Notes under the pieces: model-generated
The model's input: only the letters and a program-made list of their open reading frames with translations
Told to the model about the DNA's origin: nothing
Database searches by the model: none
DNA from: Malacoraja senta
Taxonomy: Eukaryota
NCBI GenBank assembly: GCA_038087875.1
Contig: CM075990.1
Span: 13,704,001-13,764,000 of the forward strand
DNA: 60,000 nucleotides
Direction: 5' to 3'
Part shown: piece after piece, positions 42,634-56,230 of the stretch
Position numbering within the stretch: position 1 is the stretch's first letter
How the letters are laid out: every line of letters begins with the position of its first letter
Position numbers and translations under genes: made by a program

Positions 42634-43907
42634 GTAGATTCTGAGATAAATCTAACGCAACCTCTCACATTGTGGAAATATCTTGAAACGCTTTAGAAGT
42701 TATATTTCTGAAGTATGGACTTTGAATGTTCTGTAGGCAAGCACAATCATTGACCTTTGTTCAAAAAGGTCCTATAGACACATCTTTTCTGTGCAACAGA
42801 AATGTACACATTGCCAACTGGTGACACCATTGTAAATTGCTAATATCATTATATCCTGGTGATATCACTGGCAACTTTAATGCCACTAGATACCGGAATT
42901 ATTGCTATCATTTGACAAAGTTGCTGTATGTTGGCGACGCTGACACAATTTGTAATGTTACTGTCACCTCTCTGTTGACTCAGTGGTTCTGAGTCAGAAG
43001 GTTGTAGATTCAAGACTCATTCCTTTCACCAACATTACTAAATTCACATGATCTGATTATTATACCATTTTTATTCATGGAAATTTGGTGTATGCGAATT
43101 GGTCTGTGTGCTTTTCATATTCTAGCATTTACTACACTTCAAAAGTACACAATTGTCTGTAAAGTGCTTTGAAATATCCAGAATAAGATACAAAATAATA
43201 CCAAATCAAAAAAAAGTGCTGGAGTAATCAGCCCGGGTCAGGCAGTATCTCTAGAGAACATGGCAAGGCAATGCTTCATGGTGAGAGCTTTCTTCACACC
43301 CATCTGTATAATCTGTTTGACCTTTGTTTTTCTTTCTGTATCCTGAACCATGAATCCTGGTCAAGGTCTCTAGACATTTAGCGCACGTTACATTACTGAT
43401 ATATAAGGAGATAGCAACTGGGCAGATTCATGAGATTGAATAACACCTTCACTTCAGAGAGCTGGGGAAAGCCTGCCACTGGCAATATGTTGCCTCCCTG
43501 TGAAAGGATCGAACCCATGGCTGTCAATGCAGTGGGATAATTATTGAAGCAGACAAATGAGACTTTGCTTTGGTGCCTTAAACAAGGTTGACAAGGCTAA
43601 TCCTTCAGATATATTAAGCACTGGACTTGATCGATTTGCTAAGTGGGGCTGATTTTACTGAGGTCACATTGGAAGCATCACAGGAACAGAAGGAGAACAT
43701 TCAGCCCCAAGAGCCCGCTTCATCATGTCATTAGATCTTGGCTGATTTGTATTGTAACTATGCATATGTGAGTTTCATAACCCCTAACATCACTGCTTGA
43801 CAAAAATCAAATTTGCTTATGTGTAATCCCCCTCTCACCACTGGCTGCAAGTACAAAGAATTTGTAGTGAACGGCACAAATGTTAGTTCAATGCTTTCAT
43901 TTTTCAG

Positions 43908-44149
43908 GTGCCTCAGTTCCATTCAGGATCAATGAGGAGACCTCTGAGGTCAGTGTGGTGAAGCCTCTTGACAGGGAGCAGAGGGAGACGTACGACATCA
44001 TTGTCAAATGTACGTTGCGGACACTCGCCCAGATCATCCAAGTTGTGAGATCGTTGCATGTAACCGTCCTTGACAAGGGAGATAACGCCCCGTACATCCT
44101 CGATGGCAATGACACAGCCGAGGCTTTCATTGAGTTCAACAGGAAGGAG
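43908..44149 (+). CDS. RET: RET exon 4 (CLD2/CLD3 junction)
   Basis: ttttcAG acceptor; PFRINEETSEVSVVKPLDREQRETYDIIVKC...VLDKGDNAP...EFNRKE with cadherin LDRE motif; donor GAG|GTAGGA; 242 nt, phase 1-0. Confidence 0.96.
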
Positions 44150-45934
44150 GTAGGACTTCCAACAAGATTTGGCTGAGTAATTCTGTTTAACCTGTTGCAA
44201 AAAAGCGGAGTGCTGGAGGAACTCAGCAGGTCAGGCAGCATCTATGGAGGGAATGGATAGGCGATGTTTCTGGGTGGGATCCTTGGTCAACATTCAGAAT
44301 GTCGTCTGTCCATTCCCTCCGCAGATGTTGCTTGAGGCGCTGAGTTCCTCCAGCACATTTGTTTTTTTTTCAAGATTCCAGCATCTGCAATTTCTTGTCT
44401 CCAGATTAATGTCAGCTTCTGCTTCTGTTTTTTTTTATGTGGCAGTAGTGGAAGTAACCAATTTTAAATTTCCGGGTTGTCCCACAAAGGTGAATTCTCA
44501 ATACCCGCTCCACAAAATATCTGCTTGACTTCTTTAAATCATTCTGCATCGCTATTTCTTCAATATTAATATCACGCATTCATCCACTCTCTCTGCAGTT
44601 ACATTTAAACTGTGTGTGCAAATTTCCTGCTGAAAGTTTCAGTCCATCTAGAAACACAGCAACATGTATTAAGAGATTACAACCCCTTAACCATCCTCAG
44701 GACTTAATACTTTTTGAGCGGTTCAGTAACAGAGTCTTATTGGACTTTTTACTCCCTGCAAAATCACTGGATTTCCCTGTTTGAATTGCATCTGCTCCTT
44801 GCCTGCCAAGTTCTGAGGATGTTCAAATGGGCAGTCTAGGTCAGCTTTAGAATCCATGGAACTCCAATGACGTTGTGCTTACCAGCAGGCTAATGATTGT
44901 GCAGCAGATGCCTGGATCGAGATCATTTATAGGAAAACTAAGAAAATCCCAAAGGAGATCCAAATGCCCTTCCAACTGGTGATCCACATGCGTTTCAGTT
45001 TTGTGAGTTTTGTTAGACAACGGAAGTGGTATCATTCTCCCAGGTCAATGCCAACCACTGATGACCAATTAAATGTCCACTGTGAAACATTTTGCGCTGT
45101 CTCTACTTTCAGTGCCAGCATAGAGAGAGATGCAGCCTGCCCAGAATAACAGGAATGTGGCTAGGGTATTGAACCAGCAGCCAGATTTCAATCCAATTGC
45201 TCTGAAGATTTGAGTTGGAATCTCATGGTATCTAGAGAATTTAAATTCAAGAAATTAAGAACATTTTTTTTAAAAAGCTGTTCTCAGTGTTCATAACTGA
45301 AGTCTACCCATTGTTACAAACATTCATTTGACTCACTCGTGTGCTTCCTGACTGTTTACAAGTAATAGGAGTTGAAGAAGGCTAATCGGCCCATCAAGTC
45401 TACTCCGCCATTCAATCATAGCTGATCTCTGCCTCCTCATCCCATTTTCCTGCCTTCTCCCCATAACCCTTGACACCCGTTCTAATCAAGAATCCGTCTA
45501 TCTCTGCCTTAACTATCTCTGACTTGTCTCGGTGTGACTCCTGACCCATGAATGTGGTTGACTCTAAACTGTCTCCTCCATGTAGGGGCAGGTAGGGGAT
45601 GACAATAAAAGCCAGCATTGCCAGCCACATCCACATATCAGGAATGAATCATAAACAGATGATAGCTAAAGGAACTATATTCACTGCATTAACATTTTGA
45701 ATTCTTTATCCATTCACCATAGAAAACATTTAGGTTTATGATAATTTTATTGTCGTGTACCAAGGTACAGTGAAAAACCTATTTGCATACGACGCAATAA
45801 AATCAGATAATACTATACATAAAGACAAGCAGGCTGAACTCAAGTACAACAGATAGGGTGGCACAGTGGCGCAACGGGAGAGCTACTGCCTTACAGTGCC
45901 AGGGACCCAGGTTCGATCCTGATCCTGTGTGCTC

Positions 45935-46146
45935 TCTCACGATTCTGTATCTTCTGCCGGATGGGAGCAGGGAAAGGAAGGAATAACCAGGGTGGGACAA
46001 GTCTTTGATTGTGTTGGCTGCTTTTCCAAGACAGTGCAAATGGTAGATAGAGCACTGGCCTACATCCATAACTCTGAGGAATATCTTGCAGTCTTGGGCT
46101 GAGCTGTTCCCACACCAAGCTGCGATGCAATCTGACAGTAAGTTCT
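45935..46146 (-). mobile_element. Rex1/Babar-type LINE fragment split by the HERO-like insertion (continues 49691-49830)
   Basis: CIAAWCGNSSAQD...KDLSHPGYSFLSLLPSGRRYR in ORF 45803-46228. Confidence 0.75.
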
Positions 46147-49100
46147 TGAAGATCCACCAAGGGAAGAAAAAGTGCTTGAGAGAGCAGAAACATGGGCCTC
46201 GCATTGACCAGTACTTCTTACGAAGCAACCAGTCAAATCAGTCGAGTGAAGCACAGCGACGGGACACAAACCAAAGTTCGCAGAGCATCAGCACCCATGT
46301 CACTGAAGAGGGTGATACAAGCACAGAAATGCCGGTGGAGGAGCCCACGCAACAACTACAAAGACCTCCATTGGAGGGAAAGATCAAAGGGCACAAACCT
46401 GGAGTGAAATGGCCCAAGGCTGTTGAAAAGAAAGAGTGGGAGACGGTCAACAGTGACCTTATACATATCTTGGAGCAACAAACGGGCACAGCAGTGGAAA
46501 AGCTTGAAAGGATGGGCAACACAATCTACAGCTATGGAGAAGAACGGTTTGGGGTGAGTAAAGGGAGAGGTGGAAAGAAATTACCAACACCAATCAAGTC
46601 CAGGAGGCAGCAGGAGATCGAGAGGCTAATCAGAGAGAGGAGACAGTTGAAAAAGCAATGGAAAAAAGCAACTGACGCAGAGAGAGAAGGTCTCATGCTA
46701 CTCCAAGAGGACATCAAGAACCGATTGGCAACCTTGCGAAAAGCAGAGAACTTGAGGAAACTTCGCAAGAAGAAAGAACACACAAGAACACGGTTCTATA
46801 AAGACCCTTTCAAGTTCATCAAAGACCTCTTCGCAACTTTGAAAACATCAAAACAGGAATTGGAGGAACACCTGGAAAAGGCCCACAAAGACACGAAAAG
46901 GCATGAGCAGTTGGTCATCCCACATGACATCCCGCCTATTCAACCACCTGAATTCAACATGGACACCAGCCCTCCGAGATGGAAAGAGGTGGAGAACACG
47001 GTCCGGCGAGCAAGAGCAGCTTCAGCTCCGGGGCCAAACGGAGTACCATACAAGCTCTATAAGAACGCACCAGATGTGTTACGCTTTCTATGGAAGCTCA
47101 TGAGGGTGGTGTGGAAGAAGCAAACAATACCTAAGGCTTGGCGAAGGGCCGGCGGCGTGCTAATACCTAAAGAAAAGGATTCGTCAGACATCAGCCAATT
47201 CCGGCCAATATGTCTCCTCAACGTCGAGGGAAAAATCTTTTTTAGCATTGTATCACAAAGGCTGTCCACCTATCTGGTAACAAACAAGTACATTGATACA
47301 TCTGTACAGAAAGCAGGAATTCCAGGATTTTCGGGTTGCTTGGAGCATACAAGCATGATCTGGCACCAGATCCAAGCAGCTAAGAAGGACAAGAGAGACC
47401 TACATGTGATCTTCCTCGATCTGGCCAATGCATTTGGTTCAGTTCCCCATGAACTCCTTTGGGAATCTTTTGCCTTTTTCCATGTACCAGAGCTCATCAC
47501 CACACTGGTCAAGAAATATTACCAAGACCTGCAGCTGTGCTTCACAACAGCTGACTTCAGTACAACATGGCAGCGCTTGGAAGTAGGCATCATGGCAGGC
47601 TGCACAGTCTCACCCTTGGCCTTTACAATGGCCATGGAAGTCATCATCAGGGCCTCAAAATGGGTGGTGGGCGGTGAACGAACCAGGGCTGGGCTCCGTC
47701 TGCCACCCATCAGGGCATACATGGACGACATGACAACACTAACCACTACTGCAGCATGCACCAAGCGGCTACTTGGAAAGCTGCAGGAGAACATCAAGTG
47801 GGCCCGAATGAAAATCAAACCAAGTAAATCTCGAAGCATCTCCATAGTCAAGGGGGTGCTTAGAGACACAAGGTTCTGTATTGGTGACGACCCAATACCA
47901 ACAGTGTCTGAGCAGCCAGTTAAAAGCCTGGGAAGATGGTATAACGCAAGTCTCAAGGACAAAGAGCAGGTGCAACAACTAAGGCAAGAAATTGTCAATG
48001 GACTGGAGAACATCAATCAGACCCTACTGCCTGGGAAACTGAAGCTCTGGTGCCTACAGTTTGGACTCCTTCCTCAGACAATGTGGCCACTGACCGTTTA
48101 TGAAGCCCCAATAACAACTGTGGAGAAGATGGAGCGAACCATAACTTCATACGTGAAGAAATGGCTCGGTGTCCCACGATGTCTAACTAACATCGGCCTC
48201 TATGGCAAAGGGGTCCTGGAACTACCTCTCACTAGTCTAACAGAGGAATATAAGTGTTCTAAAGTAAGACTCCAGATGACACTGAGGGACTCTAGAGACA
48301 AGATCATCAGTGCTGTTGCGCCGCCCCTAGCAACTGGCCGGAAGTGGACACCATCTGATGCAGTACAGCAAGCTTCATCAGCCCTGAGGCACAAAGACAT
48401 AGTGGGGCAAGTCCAGCAGGGAAGAGGAGGCTTTGGCCTTACGACAAGTAAACCAACTTGGCGAAAGGCCACAACATCAGAGCGGAGGACGTTGGTGGTT
48501 GAGGAGGTGCGGCGACAGGAGGAGGCCGCAAGAAGTGCAAAGGCGGTCTCTCTTGCCAAGCAGGGGCAATGGATGCATTGGGAAGGTGTGGAGCGGAGGA
48601 AGGTCAGCTGGAAAGAACTATGGGAAATGGAAGCAAGCAAGATCAGCTTCATCATCAGAGCGACATATGACGTGCTTCCATCACCAAAGAACCTCCATCA
48701 GTGGTACGGCGAGGATCCAACCTGTGCCATCTGCCCAACTCCAGCGACCCTCAAACACATCATGGTAGGCTGCAAGACCAGCCTCACGCAAGGGAGATAC
48801 ACGTGGCGGCATAATTAGGTACTAAAAAGCCTGGCATCAGCCCTTGAGAACAGGCGGTGTGCGACCAACTCCTTGCCTCCGAGAGCAAGCAACCCTCCCC
48901 TAAGGGTAATAACCTTTGTCCGAGAAGGACAGAAAACTTCTAAACTTCCTTCCACCAGATCAGAAGAAGGAAGCCAATGCAGGGCCCGTGACTGGAGGAT
49001 GCTGGCGGACATCGGCCGACAACTAATTTTTCCACCTGAAATTGCTTCCACCACCCTCAGGCCAGACTTGGTGTTCTGGTCCCCTTCACAGAAGACTGCT

Positions 49101-49409
49101 TACATCATAGAGCTCACAGTTCCATGGGAGAACTCTGTTGAGGAGGCCTATGAGCGTAAGAAGCTGCGCTACGCAGAGCTTGCAGCAGAGGCAACGCAGC
49201 GTGGCTGGAACACCAAAGTCTATCCAGTTGAAGTGGGATGCAGAGGATTTGTTGCGTCATCTACCATCAGACTGCTGAAGGAGCTTGGAATCCACGGTCA
49301 GGCTCTGCGGAAGACCATAAGATCACTCTCAGAGGCGGCTGAAAGAAGCAGCCGGTGGATTTGGCTCAAGCGGAAAGACCCATGCTGGGCCCCAAGTATG
49401 TCGGGGTGA
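46147..49409 (+). pseudogene. RT + CCHC + restriction-like endonuclease polyprotein interrupted by one nonsense codon
   Basis: RT motifs APGPNG, FRPICLLN, FLDLANAFGSV, GIMAGC..SP, YMDD; CAICP..LKHIMVGC; WRHN*VL (TAG at 48816-48818); RPDLVFW..IIELTVPWE..AYERKKLRY. The two listed ORFs (46086 and 48873) are in the same frame. Confidence 0.92.
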
Positions 49410-49469
49410 ATCTTTGGGACGGTTTGACACGGGACATGCGCTGAGGGTTGATCATCCTGCAGCGGGCCG

Positions 49470-49544
49470 CCCTTGTGGAGGGTGTATAGTGTTAAAAGGC
49501 CGAAACACCCAGTGATGCAAGGGTACACTACTGATGATGTGTCC
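49470..49544 (+). ncRNA. Predicted non-circularly permuted hammerhead ribozyme with kink-turn in the LINE 3' UTR
   Basis: Core CUGAUGA 49531-37, GAAA 49502-05, GUA triplet 49484-86; helix III GGGUGU/ACACCC; helix I UAGUGU/ACACUA; short helix II G(U)GUC/GGCC. Confidence 0.72.
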
Positions 49545-51634
49545 TGTGCCCAACTGTCCTGAAGGTTACCCCCCCCACCCCCCCCCCCGATGTTGAGCGT
49601 CTACCACTCTCAACAATCAACGAATGTCGTGAAATGCTCCCCACCTATTGGCACAAGGGACTTCTTAACATCTTGTCCTGTGTATTTGATTCTGACAGTA
49701 AGTTCTCTGTGGTGCATCCGTAGTAGTTTGTAAGAGTCATTGGAGAAGTGATGAAGTTCCAAAGTCTCCTGAGGAACTCGAGGCATTGTGTGCCTTCTTG
49801 GCTGACTTTCAATGTAGGTTGGTCCCACGACTGATTGCAAGTAGCAAATGTGGAATAATTTGAGTTAAATTGGCAAGACCTCCTTCACATGACCCTTTGC
49901 TCAATCTTTATGAATCTACTTCCGTCCAGTTGTTCTGGCTCTATTCATTAGAAGAGATTTTCATTATTTCTCTAACAATGGATGTCAGCTCATTTATCAG
50001 TAGCTTCCCGGGTCATTTATATAAGTGTAATGTCTGCCATTCTTCAGTTTCCCTGGCATTTTTCCAGTAATAGAACATCTTCAATGCCATCTAGTAATTC
50101 CAGTTAAAGTGATTCAGTGCCTAGCCTTTCCTTTTGTACGTTCTTCCTCAGTCTTGCTCACTGCCTCCTTTTCTCCTGATATTGTCTCTACTGAACAATT
50201 TATATCCTTCTGGACATTTATCCCATTAACTGAAATTATTTCACCATGTCTCTGAGACACTAACGATGCCCAATCTATAAACCCTGCAACCCCCCCCACC
50301 CAGAACATGCATCTGTTTTTTTAAATATTTTACATTGATCCATCATACCACTGCCTTTGACTTCTCTTGTGGGATTTAATAACATCTTGATGCTGTTTAT
50401 CCCGCACTATTAGAATTAAAATTGAAAACTTTGAATTGTATTAACACTTGGGCTCTCTCGGACTTTGCTCCAAGGTGTTCACTTGCAGCTGCTGTGAACT
50501 CTCCACGAAAGGTTTAGCTGCGGCTCCATCATTCTACCTGTTGTACCTGCCAATCCCTCTGCTCCCTACTTTGTCTGGCTGGTACCCATTTAGTCCACAA
50601 AATGCTCTTTGTACAAATCTTAATTTGTAGAAAGAAAATTATAGTCTACATTGCAAGGATGAAAGGAAAGTAGGAGCATGAAAAGATGGGCTATTCAACC
50701 TGATGATGTTCTCCAATGAAGACTAGGTAGCAAATTCAATCCCATTCTTCTATGTAAAGGCAATGAAGATGCTCCTGATTGTGTGCAATGCTGTGTTCTA
50801 ACAGAGGTCAATGGAGAGAACAATCAGCATGAATATATCCAGGTGCCTTTTCATATAATTTCTATTTTTATTGATCTTTACTTCAATAAGAAGGGCCTGG
50901 AATCTTATGCAACACTAATGTTGCATTACCACTTAATGCCCTACTCTAAACTGCAAAATGACAGAAATTGCGGATTCTGCAGTATCAGGCTTTTATTGCA
51001 ATGGGCCAGATCATTGGAGCTGCGCTTGTTCTCCACTGTGCACGCTCCCCGGGCTTGCTGTCAGCCCACCTAGTTTCAGACTCACTATTCCTGCAGCAGC
51101 TCCCAAGAACCAATGACAGCCATGGATTGGAGCAAGTCCCTGCAAAGGAGCAAGGGATATATACAGAAGAAAGATAATAAGAAACTCTACAATCATGATG
51201 TCGTGTCATGATGTATGCAGCTTCAGCTATTTTTCATCCCAGGTGAAAACGATGGCAAATTACCATAATTAATTAAACAAAATATCTTCCACAATTATGT
51301 TTTTCTTTTCCATAAATCATTTAAAAGTTTATTAGGGAGGGATTTAATGATTGCATAAATTCAAGATCCACTTTGGGGACACGAAAGACTGCAGATGCTG
51401 GCATCCTGAACAAAACACAAAATGCTACAGGAAATCTGCAGGTCAGTCAGCATCTGTGGAAGGAAATGGACAGATGACATTTTGGGTTGGGCCCCTTTTT
51501 TTGAGAAGGATCCAGATCTGGCCGTTTCCCTCTACAGATGCTGCCTGGCCTGCTGAGTTCCTCCAGTAATTTGTTTTCCAAGATCCATGTTGCCTTTGGC
51601 ATCCCTTGTTTCTAAGTTTATTTTTATTTTGCAG

Positions 51635-55493: not shown

Positions 55494-56230
55494 GTAAAAA
55501 TAAAATCAGTAATAATTCCATGCATTATGCTTTTTTATGTCATGCTTGTATATAATACTGGCTTCCGAATGAGTGAACTGGATACACGTCAGTATTAAGA
55601 TTGAAATTTATTTAATGTTTTCACAGTTTAGCAATGATTGGGCAGATAGTATAGGAAAGAACTGCAGATGCTGGTTTATTTCGAAGATAGACATGTTTAC
55701 AAATACACAGGACTAGATGTTAAAAGTCCAAAGTGCCAAATATCAATTTACTCCCGATGGTGATGGGAGCCTTCTGCACTCAACTATGCTCTTCCGATGT
55801 TGAGAAAGGCTAGGCAGACACGTCATTGGGGTTATAAAGTGGGCACCTACTTTCATCGACGTTTCGCTGATTGAACCCACGACGTCTCCAGTAGGCTCAG
55901 CGGTGCATTCTGGCGTCCCAGAACCACCCCCCTCTGCATCTGTCTAGTCGGTTATTTGGGAGACCAAATGGGGTCTTTCCTCTTCAGCCAGAGCCACTGG
56001 CTCAATGGTGAGACCCTTCTTCAGAGTCTGAAGGGTTTCAACCTGAAACGTCACCCATTCCTTCTCTCCAGAGGTGCTGCCTGTCCCGCTGTGTTACTCC
56101 AGCATTTTGTGTCTAGGCTCCAAAAAGACATGTCACTCAAACTTCTAAATTTTCCTAACTTCAGAAGTGGAAAAAGCTTTGATCCAATCTTTATGTGGCA
56201 ATAATAAACCTAAACCTTTTGTTTCAACAG

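Follow-up and report, generated by a model that had tools for sequence, protein, structure and literature searches.

What does a kink turn (k-turn) do inside helix III of a hammerhead ribozyme? The question is raised by positions 49470..49523 of a 60,000-nucleotide window from Malacoraja senta, the window being the whole stretch of DNA that was analysed. The earlier note had read this piece as a consensus k-turn and had suggested that its bend may let permuted strands reach the catalytic core and that an L7Ae-family protein could switch cleavage on or off. From sequence comparison, we conclude that the conserved k-turn closes helix III of a predicted hammerhead and probably works there as a structural elbow, with no protein needed.

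Every pair that had been named for 49470..49523 was present in the sequence, and the standard pattern of a 3-nt bulge (AGU in the window), tandem G•A/A•G pairs and a C helix was found both in the window and among relatives. The parts of the k-turn are as follows.

49480-49485 / 49505-49510, + strand: C helix, which is hammerhead helix III (G49480-U49485 / A49505-C49510; -1b/-1n is C49510-G49480)
49511..49513, + strand: k-turn bulge L1-L3, AGU (A49511, G49512, U49513)
49514..49515, + strand: k-turn G1b and A2b (1b•1n is G49514•A49479; 2b•2n is A49515•G49478)
49478..49479, + strand: k-turn G2n and A1n, opposite G49514/A49515
49470..49477, + strand: NC helix, non-bulged strand (10n-3n), with covariation at pairs 4-8
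49516..49523, + strand: NC helix, bulged strand (3b-10b), facing 49470..49477

The NC helix starts with U49516•G49477 at 3b•3n and G49517•U49476 at 4b•4n, beyond which lie six Watson-Crick pairs (C49518-G49523 / C49470-G49475). The stem folding of the 54-nt stretch gave a z of -2.88, with 1 of 200 shuffles as good, and pair probabilities lay at 0.95-1.0 in helix III and at 0.71-0.97 in the distal helix. By its sequence, the stretch is a k-turn and a member of the standard class. The likeness to box C is partial: GUGAUGC fits RUGAUGA at 6/7 positions, and the opposite strand reads UGGA and not the box D sequence CUGA.

The motif lies ~60 nt past the stop codon of a retrotransposon ORF, in the element's 3' UTR. 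The element spans 46147-49690 (+), is 5'-truncated and is bounded by a 16-bp duplication.

46131..46146, + strand: target-site duplication, left copy, 16 bp, identical to 49691-49706
46147..49409, + strand: ORF of a non-LTR retrotransposon of the RLE type, 5'-truncated, with reverse transcriptase (RT), zinc knuckle and restriction-like endonuclease
49549..49690, + strand: element 3' tail, with a terminal motif (49667-49680) common to sister families
49691..49706, + strand: target-site duplication, right copy, identical to 46131-46146

The ORF contains an in-frame stop at 48816-48818 and an RVT_1 domain match (E 2e-23), and its homologues that carry names come from fish, lancelets and scallops. 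Its endonuclease motif was recognised by eye. A single ORF with RT and a C-terminal restriction-like endonuclease, together with a target-site duplication, is a feature of the HERO/Hero clade that this element shares, and we take the element to be HERO-like. The insertion site (46111-46146, 49691-49760) is itself a repeat that contigs of other runs cross with related sequence, which supports the target-site duplication. Upstream of the element, an exon-like frame at 43871-44176 (+) with cadherin and RET_CLD3 matches is probably an exon of a host gene, suggesting that the element sits in an intron of a fish gene.

Relatives were fetched by protein alone: an alignment of 39 endonuclease domains led to metagenome loci, and the best 80 of 350 confirmed were used. 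The core parse considered only GAAA, helix III, NUH, stem I and CUGANGA and was blind to the k-turn; it tolerated up to two mismatches, and conservation of the core is partly by construction. A hammerhead core was parsed in 56 of the 80 loci, which with the window made 57 copies, reduced to 42 by dereplication at 90% identity and to 34 at 80%. Among the 24 loci dropped by the parse, flanks were short, cores were damaged or the motif was missing beside the ORF; model R1 later matched 12 of these loci. The k-turn register was taken as the better of two helix lengths, which slightly inflates the single-position counts. Since the copies share ancestry, they do not count as independent events; a quick protein tree of 47 rows has the standard k-turn spread across it, with six changes of k-turn state and at least 11 changes of pair 6.

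Full GA/GA in register, that is with a 3-nt bulge following helix III of 5 or 6 bp, was present in 34 of the 42 copies at 90% dereplication, against 0.45 expected from base use. It was likewise found in 27/34 copies at 80% dereplication, in 42/57 overall and in 48/65 distinct rows of the model alignment, damaged copies included. No copy among the 42 non-redundant homologues had GA/GA at a 4-nt bulge, and where a 5-nt bulge with a shorter helix gave a match, it drew on the same 3' GA together with a GA within helix III. Free variation of the GA/GA positions, the outcome that the earlier note had set against its own reading, was not seen: 1b is G in 42/42, 1n is A in 40/42, 2b is A in 39/42 and 2n is G in 34/42, while the adjacent 3n, 4n, 3b and 4b take all four bases in the same 42 copies. 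The -1b/-1n pair is C-G in 25 of the 34 standard k-turns, and in these the bulge has a purine at L1 (28/34) and L2 (27/34) and U at L3 (23/34). In contigs of other families (at least 80% alike), all three bulge positions vary, and none of the listed variants falls at the four GA positions.

The remaining copies depart from the standard k-turn in several ways. Position 2n is U in L038, L068 and L059, as Kt-23 often has, and C in L031 and L043. The L041/L056/L070 group has a 5-bp helix, a plain 3-nt bulge and nine Watson-Crick pairs; GA/GA is lost, the core is intact, and the helices flanking the bulge have the same lengths as in the k-turn copies. In L028/L052/L058/L063, the place of the k-turn is taken by an A/U-rich bulge of 5-6 nt on the opposite strand, again with an intact core, and the clade (98% SH-aLRT) also includes the 2n = C variants L031 and L043. 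Both groups keep the bend site without GA/GA, which recalls the exchange of k-turn and pk-turn described for RNase P (PMC5061560). In the deepest-branching group, L033:2147-2266 has the motif ~570 nt past the ORF match, and its GA/GA has an apparent 4-nt bulge.

The distal helix was examined at pair positions set by their offset from GA and not picked for pairing. Pairs 4-8 were formed in 31, 34, 33, 30 and 32 of 34 copies, compared with shuffle means of 16.5, 19.9, 15.8, 13.9 and 28.9 of 34, and showed 10, 10, 20, 17 and 4 both-side changes; pairing was also above that of slid registers. Pairing with both-side changes above shuffles and slid registers indicates that the distal helix is real. 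Only 11/34 copies have a standard pair at position 3, where low standard pairing is usual for k-turns. For the whole five-helix pseudoknotted structure, 30 of the 42 copies were aligned by sequence only, most of the non-standard ones being among the 12 omitted; 86.7% of cells were paired versus 62.8% when shuffled and 36-45% when slid, and covariation was 0.62 versus 0.20. Helices 2, 4 and 5 of the 30-row alignment, which make up hammerhead stems I, II and III, had 96.7, 99.4 and 91.0% of cells paired, in that order of helices.

The strands of the predicted hammerhead are arranged around the k-turn in the following order.

49428..49438, + strand: X', 5' strand of the closing helix, pairing with 49538..49548 (11/11 pairs with both-side changes in A2)
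49439..49464, + strand: hairpin P, between X' and stem II, from structure comparison
49465..49468, + strand: stem II 5' strand (G49465 is G10.1), pairing with 49498-49501, from covariation
49480..49486, + strand: helix III 5' strand and GUA triplet, with predicted cleavage after A49486
49487..49492, + strand: stem I 5' strand, pairing with 49525-49530
49498..49501, + strand: stem II 3' strand (C49501 is C11.1)
49502..49510, + strand: G12 A13 A14 and helix III 3' strand (A15.1 is 49505; -1b is C49510)
49525..49537, + strand: stem I 3' strand and CUGAUGA core, from the core parse
49538..49548, + strand: X strand, directly past A9; its partner is X', not stem II

The core elements CUGAnGA, GAAA, NUH, A15.1-U16.1 and G10.1-C11.1 are all present, partly through selection by the parse. 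Position 17 is U, C or A and never G in 42/42 copies, with an A>C variant in sister families; G10.1 is G in 37/42, and the facing C11.1 is C in 36/42. A canonical stem II, made of the strand after CUGAUGA and the strand before GAAA, was tried and rejected, with 4/4 pairs in at most 1 of 38 copies at any of four offsets. An upstream stem II strand, starting 14 nt before A1n, forms 4/4 pairs in 30/39 copies, and C11.1 pairs with the strand after A9 in 1/34 copies and with the upstream strand in 30/34. In hammerheads A9 runs straight (0-2 nt) into the stem II 5' strand, which is not the case here. The upstream position of the stem II partner means that the chain is opened between A9 and G10.1. 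Judged from the sequence, the fold is a predicted permuted hammerhead with the stem II 5' strand upstream and the core opened between A9 and G10.1. At the far end of the NC helix, which is 7-8 bp long, linkers of about one base lead from one strand to stem II and from the other to stem I; the distance from 1b to C3 is 15-17 nt in 34/34 copies, and arm lengths stay within two bases.

At the predicted cut site, no insertion or deletion at 49486/49487 was listed in contigs from eight runs at a 5% threshold. L053 has a short deletion across this site, a single case. One contig of run X17 skips 49448-49529, which contains the k-turn arm and the cut site, with 30 letters matching on each side, and may be a deleted copy. 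The subfamily of L004, L007, L010 and L012 has U at C3 (UUGAAGA, UUGACAA) and keeps the k-turn, and two of these loci also have A at G8 (UUGACAA); the ribozymes of these four loci may be slow or inactive.

The window holds another copy of the fold on the opposite strand.

55819..55944, - strand: second copy of the fold, belonging to a sister family (R1 53.8 bits, E 3.7e-10, outside the training set)

Its k-turn is intact (G55888/A55887, bulge GAU at 55857-55855, G55854/A55853, A•G at 3b•3n), and its CUGANGA core is decayed (55838-55832). The surrounding 55700-56010 (-) is a short 3'-end fragment of the sister family, whose terminal motif at 55721 matches that of the main copy at 49667.

Of the 51 loci whose 3' flank exceeds 150 nt, an element ORF starts further along the same strand in 17 (L004, L007, L012, L016, L021, L029, L031, L034, L035, L037, L038, L042, L046, L050, L051, L055 and L057). 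In these head-to-tail loci, the next ORF is of the same kind of element and starts within about 100-500 nt; the junctions may be genuine tandems, or terminal repeats that assembly has collapsed. Sister copies end 42-177 nt past C3. The downstream ORFs and the ends of the sister copies together place the motif at unit junctions, whole in inserted copies. As the ribozyme is complete in inserted copies, the RNAs that templated them had either escaped cutting or been rejoined after it. In most tandem loci, the downstream unit opens with a short repeat, a UGAC spacer plus a small hairpin with a purine-rich GAAAGA-type loop, in about four or five copies (L038:1748-1847, L031:1420-1519, L034:1772-1871, L029:1747-1846). 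The repeats, whose folds are inconsistent among loci, might serve as an internal promoter or as an element of the RNA.

We also looked for the fold in viral and prokaryote collections. In viral contigs, the protein scans yielded 0 and 1 weak locus, and of eight DNA-pattern matches none passed model R1. The prokaryote genome collection gave 69 pattern matches, three of which passed R1 (L096, L112, L140); these are short contigs close to the window's family, in which tblastn with two full-length proteins found no ORF, and they are likely host DNA. There was thus no sign of the fold outside these elements in the two collections at that sensitivity.

Whether a k-turn folds in metal ions depends on its 3b•3n pair: Watson-Crick and G•U pairs make poor ion folders, and G at 3n or C at 3b makes good ones (PMC4382518, PMC8191799). 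U•G is the majority 3b•3n pair of bacterial Kt-7, of the N1 class and ion-folding (PMC4914095), and the window's own k-turn, U•G with a -1 C-G pair, is of this common Kt-7 type. By these rules of McPhee (G at 3n or C at 3b), 24 of the 34 k-turns are Mg2+ folders, five are poor folders and five are unclassified. A•G is the commonest 3b•3n pair (10/34), G-U occurs in 1/34, and G-C is absent from the 34. The U4 k-turns, which await 15.5K, are 97% non-folders in ions (PMC4382518); a bias of this kind to non-folding 3b•3n pairs (G-C, G-U) was not found in the 34 copies. The share of folders is well below the 95% with G at 3n quoted for SAM-I; here G is at 3n in 17/34.

These data bear on how the predicted ribozyme would be built. 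Stem III would leave the core stacked under stem II, and a kink of roughly 50 degrees would turn the helix III arm back alongside stem II. The end of the arm would then clamp stems I and II, taking over from the tertiary contact that these two stems make in ordinary hammerheads, and Mg2+ together with contacts within the ribozyme itself is predicted to suffice for folding the k-turn. The ribozyme would cleave after A49486 (GUA) and so cut head-to-tail element transcripts to unit lengths. The distance from the arm end to the top of stem II was put at 64-73 Å for a straight arm versus 23-38 Å with a kink of 40-60 degrees, a back-of-envelope estimate in which rise, core size and stacking are assumed and not taken from a 3D model. 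A straight arm would be too far for the one-base links, and arm lengths are held within two bases, so the k-turn is best read as an elbow. The suggestion that the bend lets the permuted strands reach the core thus gains indirect support from the one-base linkers to stems II and I and the near-constant lengths. We hold it reasonably likely, though with less confidence than for the elbow itself, that this is an active, k-turn-dependent hammerhead outside the six block orders considered possible, in which a k-turn clamp would replace the loop-loop contact. The elbow reading is opposed by several observations. Five of 34 k-turns are poor ion folders, another five fall outside the rules, and G is at 3n in only half of them; features contacted by L7Ae are kept in most copies, and most k-turns bind L7Ae proteins, needed or not; and inserted copies, with their ribozyme intact, leave scope for control. 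In the literature, no tested precedent was found for opening a hammerhead core at A9/G10.1.

The alternative that survives best takes the k-turn for a dock at which 15.5K/SNU13, L30e or another L7Ae-family protein would switch predicted cleavage on or off and so decide whether element RNA gets cut or stays whole as template. G1b in 42/42 and G2n in 34/42 copies, the purine-rich L1 and L2 and the U at L3 in 23/34 fit the contacts of L7Ae (PMC5061560), inserted copies with a whole ribozyme (templates uncut or rejoined) would give such control room, and 5/34 copies have poorly ion-folding 3b•3n pairs. Against this, the box C sequence RUGAUGA is found in 0/34 copies, the box D sequence CUGA in 2/34 and both together in 0/34, U•U and G-C occupy 3b•3n in 3/34 and 0/34, respectively, and L3 is not U in 11/34. 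The predominance of ion folders is also the reverse of the U4 pattern, and the G•A pairs were lost or altered in lineages with intact cores (the L041 group; the L028/L052 group; L038, L068, L059; L031, L043). Nothing in the window matches Rfam at the gathering score; the sole match, to the C/D snoRNA sR52 (17.7 bits against a gathering score of 50, E 0.17), was rejected as chance. An obligatory L7Ae/15.5K switch is not supported, given the 24/34 ion folders and two core-keeping lineages without the G•A pairs that L7Ae reads. We regard a dock that switches cleavage as rather improbable, and modulation of the predicted ribozyme by 15.5K as unlikely.

A further alternative is that the fold and its k-turn serve mainly as a 3' recognition element for the element's own RT, with the kink shaping a protein-binding surface and the predicted cleavage slow or incidental. 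The fold follows the stop codon and precedes the element's 3' end, in the region where R2-like proteins bind their RNA, and insertions keep it whole. The core has drifted in L004, L007, L010 and L012, and the second copy in the window keeps its k-turn with a decayed core. The core, G10.1-C11.1, U16.1-A15.1 and the absence of G at position 17, however, hold across proteins 42-85% identical to the query, a pattern that is hard to explain without selection for cleavage, even if this conservation is partly built in by the parse. Recognition by the RT as the main function appears quite doubtful.

A chance GA/GA beside a bulge in one copy is conceivable in that the k-turn consensus fixes just four bases and single-copy matches are common, but it is refuted, to the point of being negligible, by 34/42 copies versus 0.45 expected, by the register specificity with 0 at a 4-nt bulge and by the covariation of the flanking helix.

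The elbow reading was then set against known systems. With Kt-7 and the SAM-I k-turns, the k-turn described here shares the 3-nt bulge, G1b•A1n, A2b•G2n, the -1 C-G pair and G at 3n, and in both the kink lets the far end of a long helix reach a distant partner (PMC4382518, PMC5061560, PMC4914095, PMC8191799). Unlike in those, the C helix here is the catalytic stem III of a predicted ribozyme, and the far end of the NC helix has, in place of a docking loop, two backbone links to stems I and II. A close hammerhead is type-SGC HRIMA-1 (Eckert 2023, PMC10085705), which has the same block order of site, GAAA and CUGAnGA, a short stem I-II linker and an extra helix that ties stems I and II on their other sides, both stems being pseudoknots. 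That 5'-to-3' order and a helix joining stems I and II are both found here, but the extra helix runs into stem III via the k-turn on both strands, the break is at A9/G10.1, two helices are added and the host is an animal retrotransposon. Block C (stem I 3' strand, CUGAnGA, stem II 5' strand), which is one run in type-SGC, is interrupted, and despite its SGC-like working the fold is therefore not classed as type-SGC. Eckert 2023 assumed that the A9-G10.1 link cannot be interrupted and noted that stem III and the I-II helix are far apart in the crystal structure, their compatibility not being obvious (PMC10085705). The NC helix matches the SGC helix that ties stems I and II, and the k-turn would thus be the connection of that helix to stem III. 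The words "kink" and "k-turn" occur 0 times in the text and supplement of Eckert 2023, a keyword check that leaves room for an unnamed k-turn in its alignments.

The box C/D and U4 snRNA k-turns bound by 15.5K/SNU13 are alike in the GA/GA core, in an L3 that is mostly U and in the RUGA on the bulged strand of the window, and unlike in that the 34 copies have no RUGAUGA/CUGA pair and a 3b•3n bias opposite to that of U4. Penelope-like hammerheads and retrozymes, as far as described in the sources consulted, also place a hammerhead at the junction of head-to-tail retroelement units. Penelope-like hammerheads are type I circular permutations in GIY-YIG elements, whereas here an RLE element has a permuted, k-turn-braced fold; the terms kink, k-turn and HERO are absent from the text of a 2026 retrozyme preprint. 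The engineered HHV-Kt hammerhead likewise has a k-turn in a hammerhead stem, but there it is an artificial affinity tag for L7Ae, placed on a stem that is not essential, whereas the k-turn here would be a natural structural element (PMC9521606). In the literature surveyed, with incomplete coverage, neither a natural hammerhead with a k-turn nor a hammerhead in HERO/Hero/NeSL elements was found, this engineered tag being the nearest case, and Rfam has no family for this fold. The k-turn-braced fold is a new hammerhead variant built around a known motif.

If the elbow reading is true, this would be a natural small ribozyme with a k-turn-dependent active fold, apparently undescribed. It would offer, for one family, a testable answer to the question from Eckert 2023 of how stem III and the I-II helix connect, and the hammerhead core apparently tolerates a break at A9/G10.1. 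The natural variants (Kt-23-like, GA-less and with an opposite-strand bulge) are ready tests of the k-turn rules, and k-turn hammerhead variants may serve as a scaffold for protein-responsive ribozyme switches. There is an outside chance that part of the working is tuned by protein, with host 15.5K or an element protein binding the elbow and setting whether the RNA is cut, rejoined or left whole; that form, if true, would be a natural protein-tuned small ribozyme. For the elements themselves, the finding would place a predicted self-cleaving motif where successive units meet in a widespread group of animal retrotransposons.
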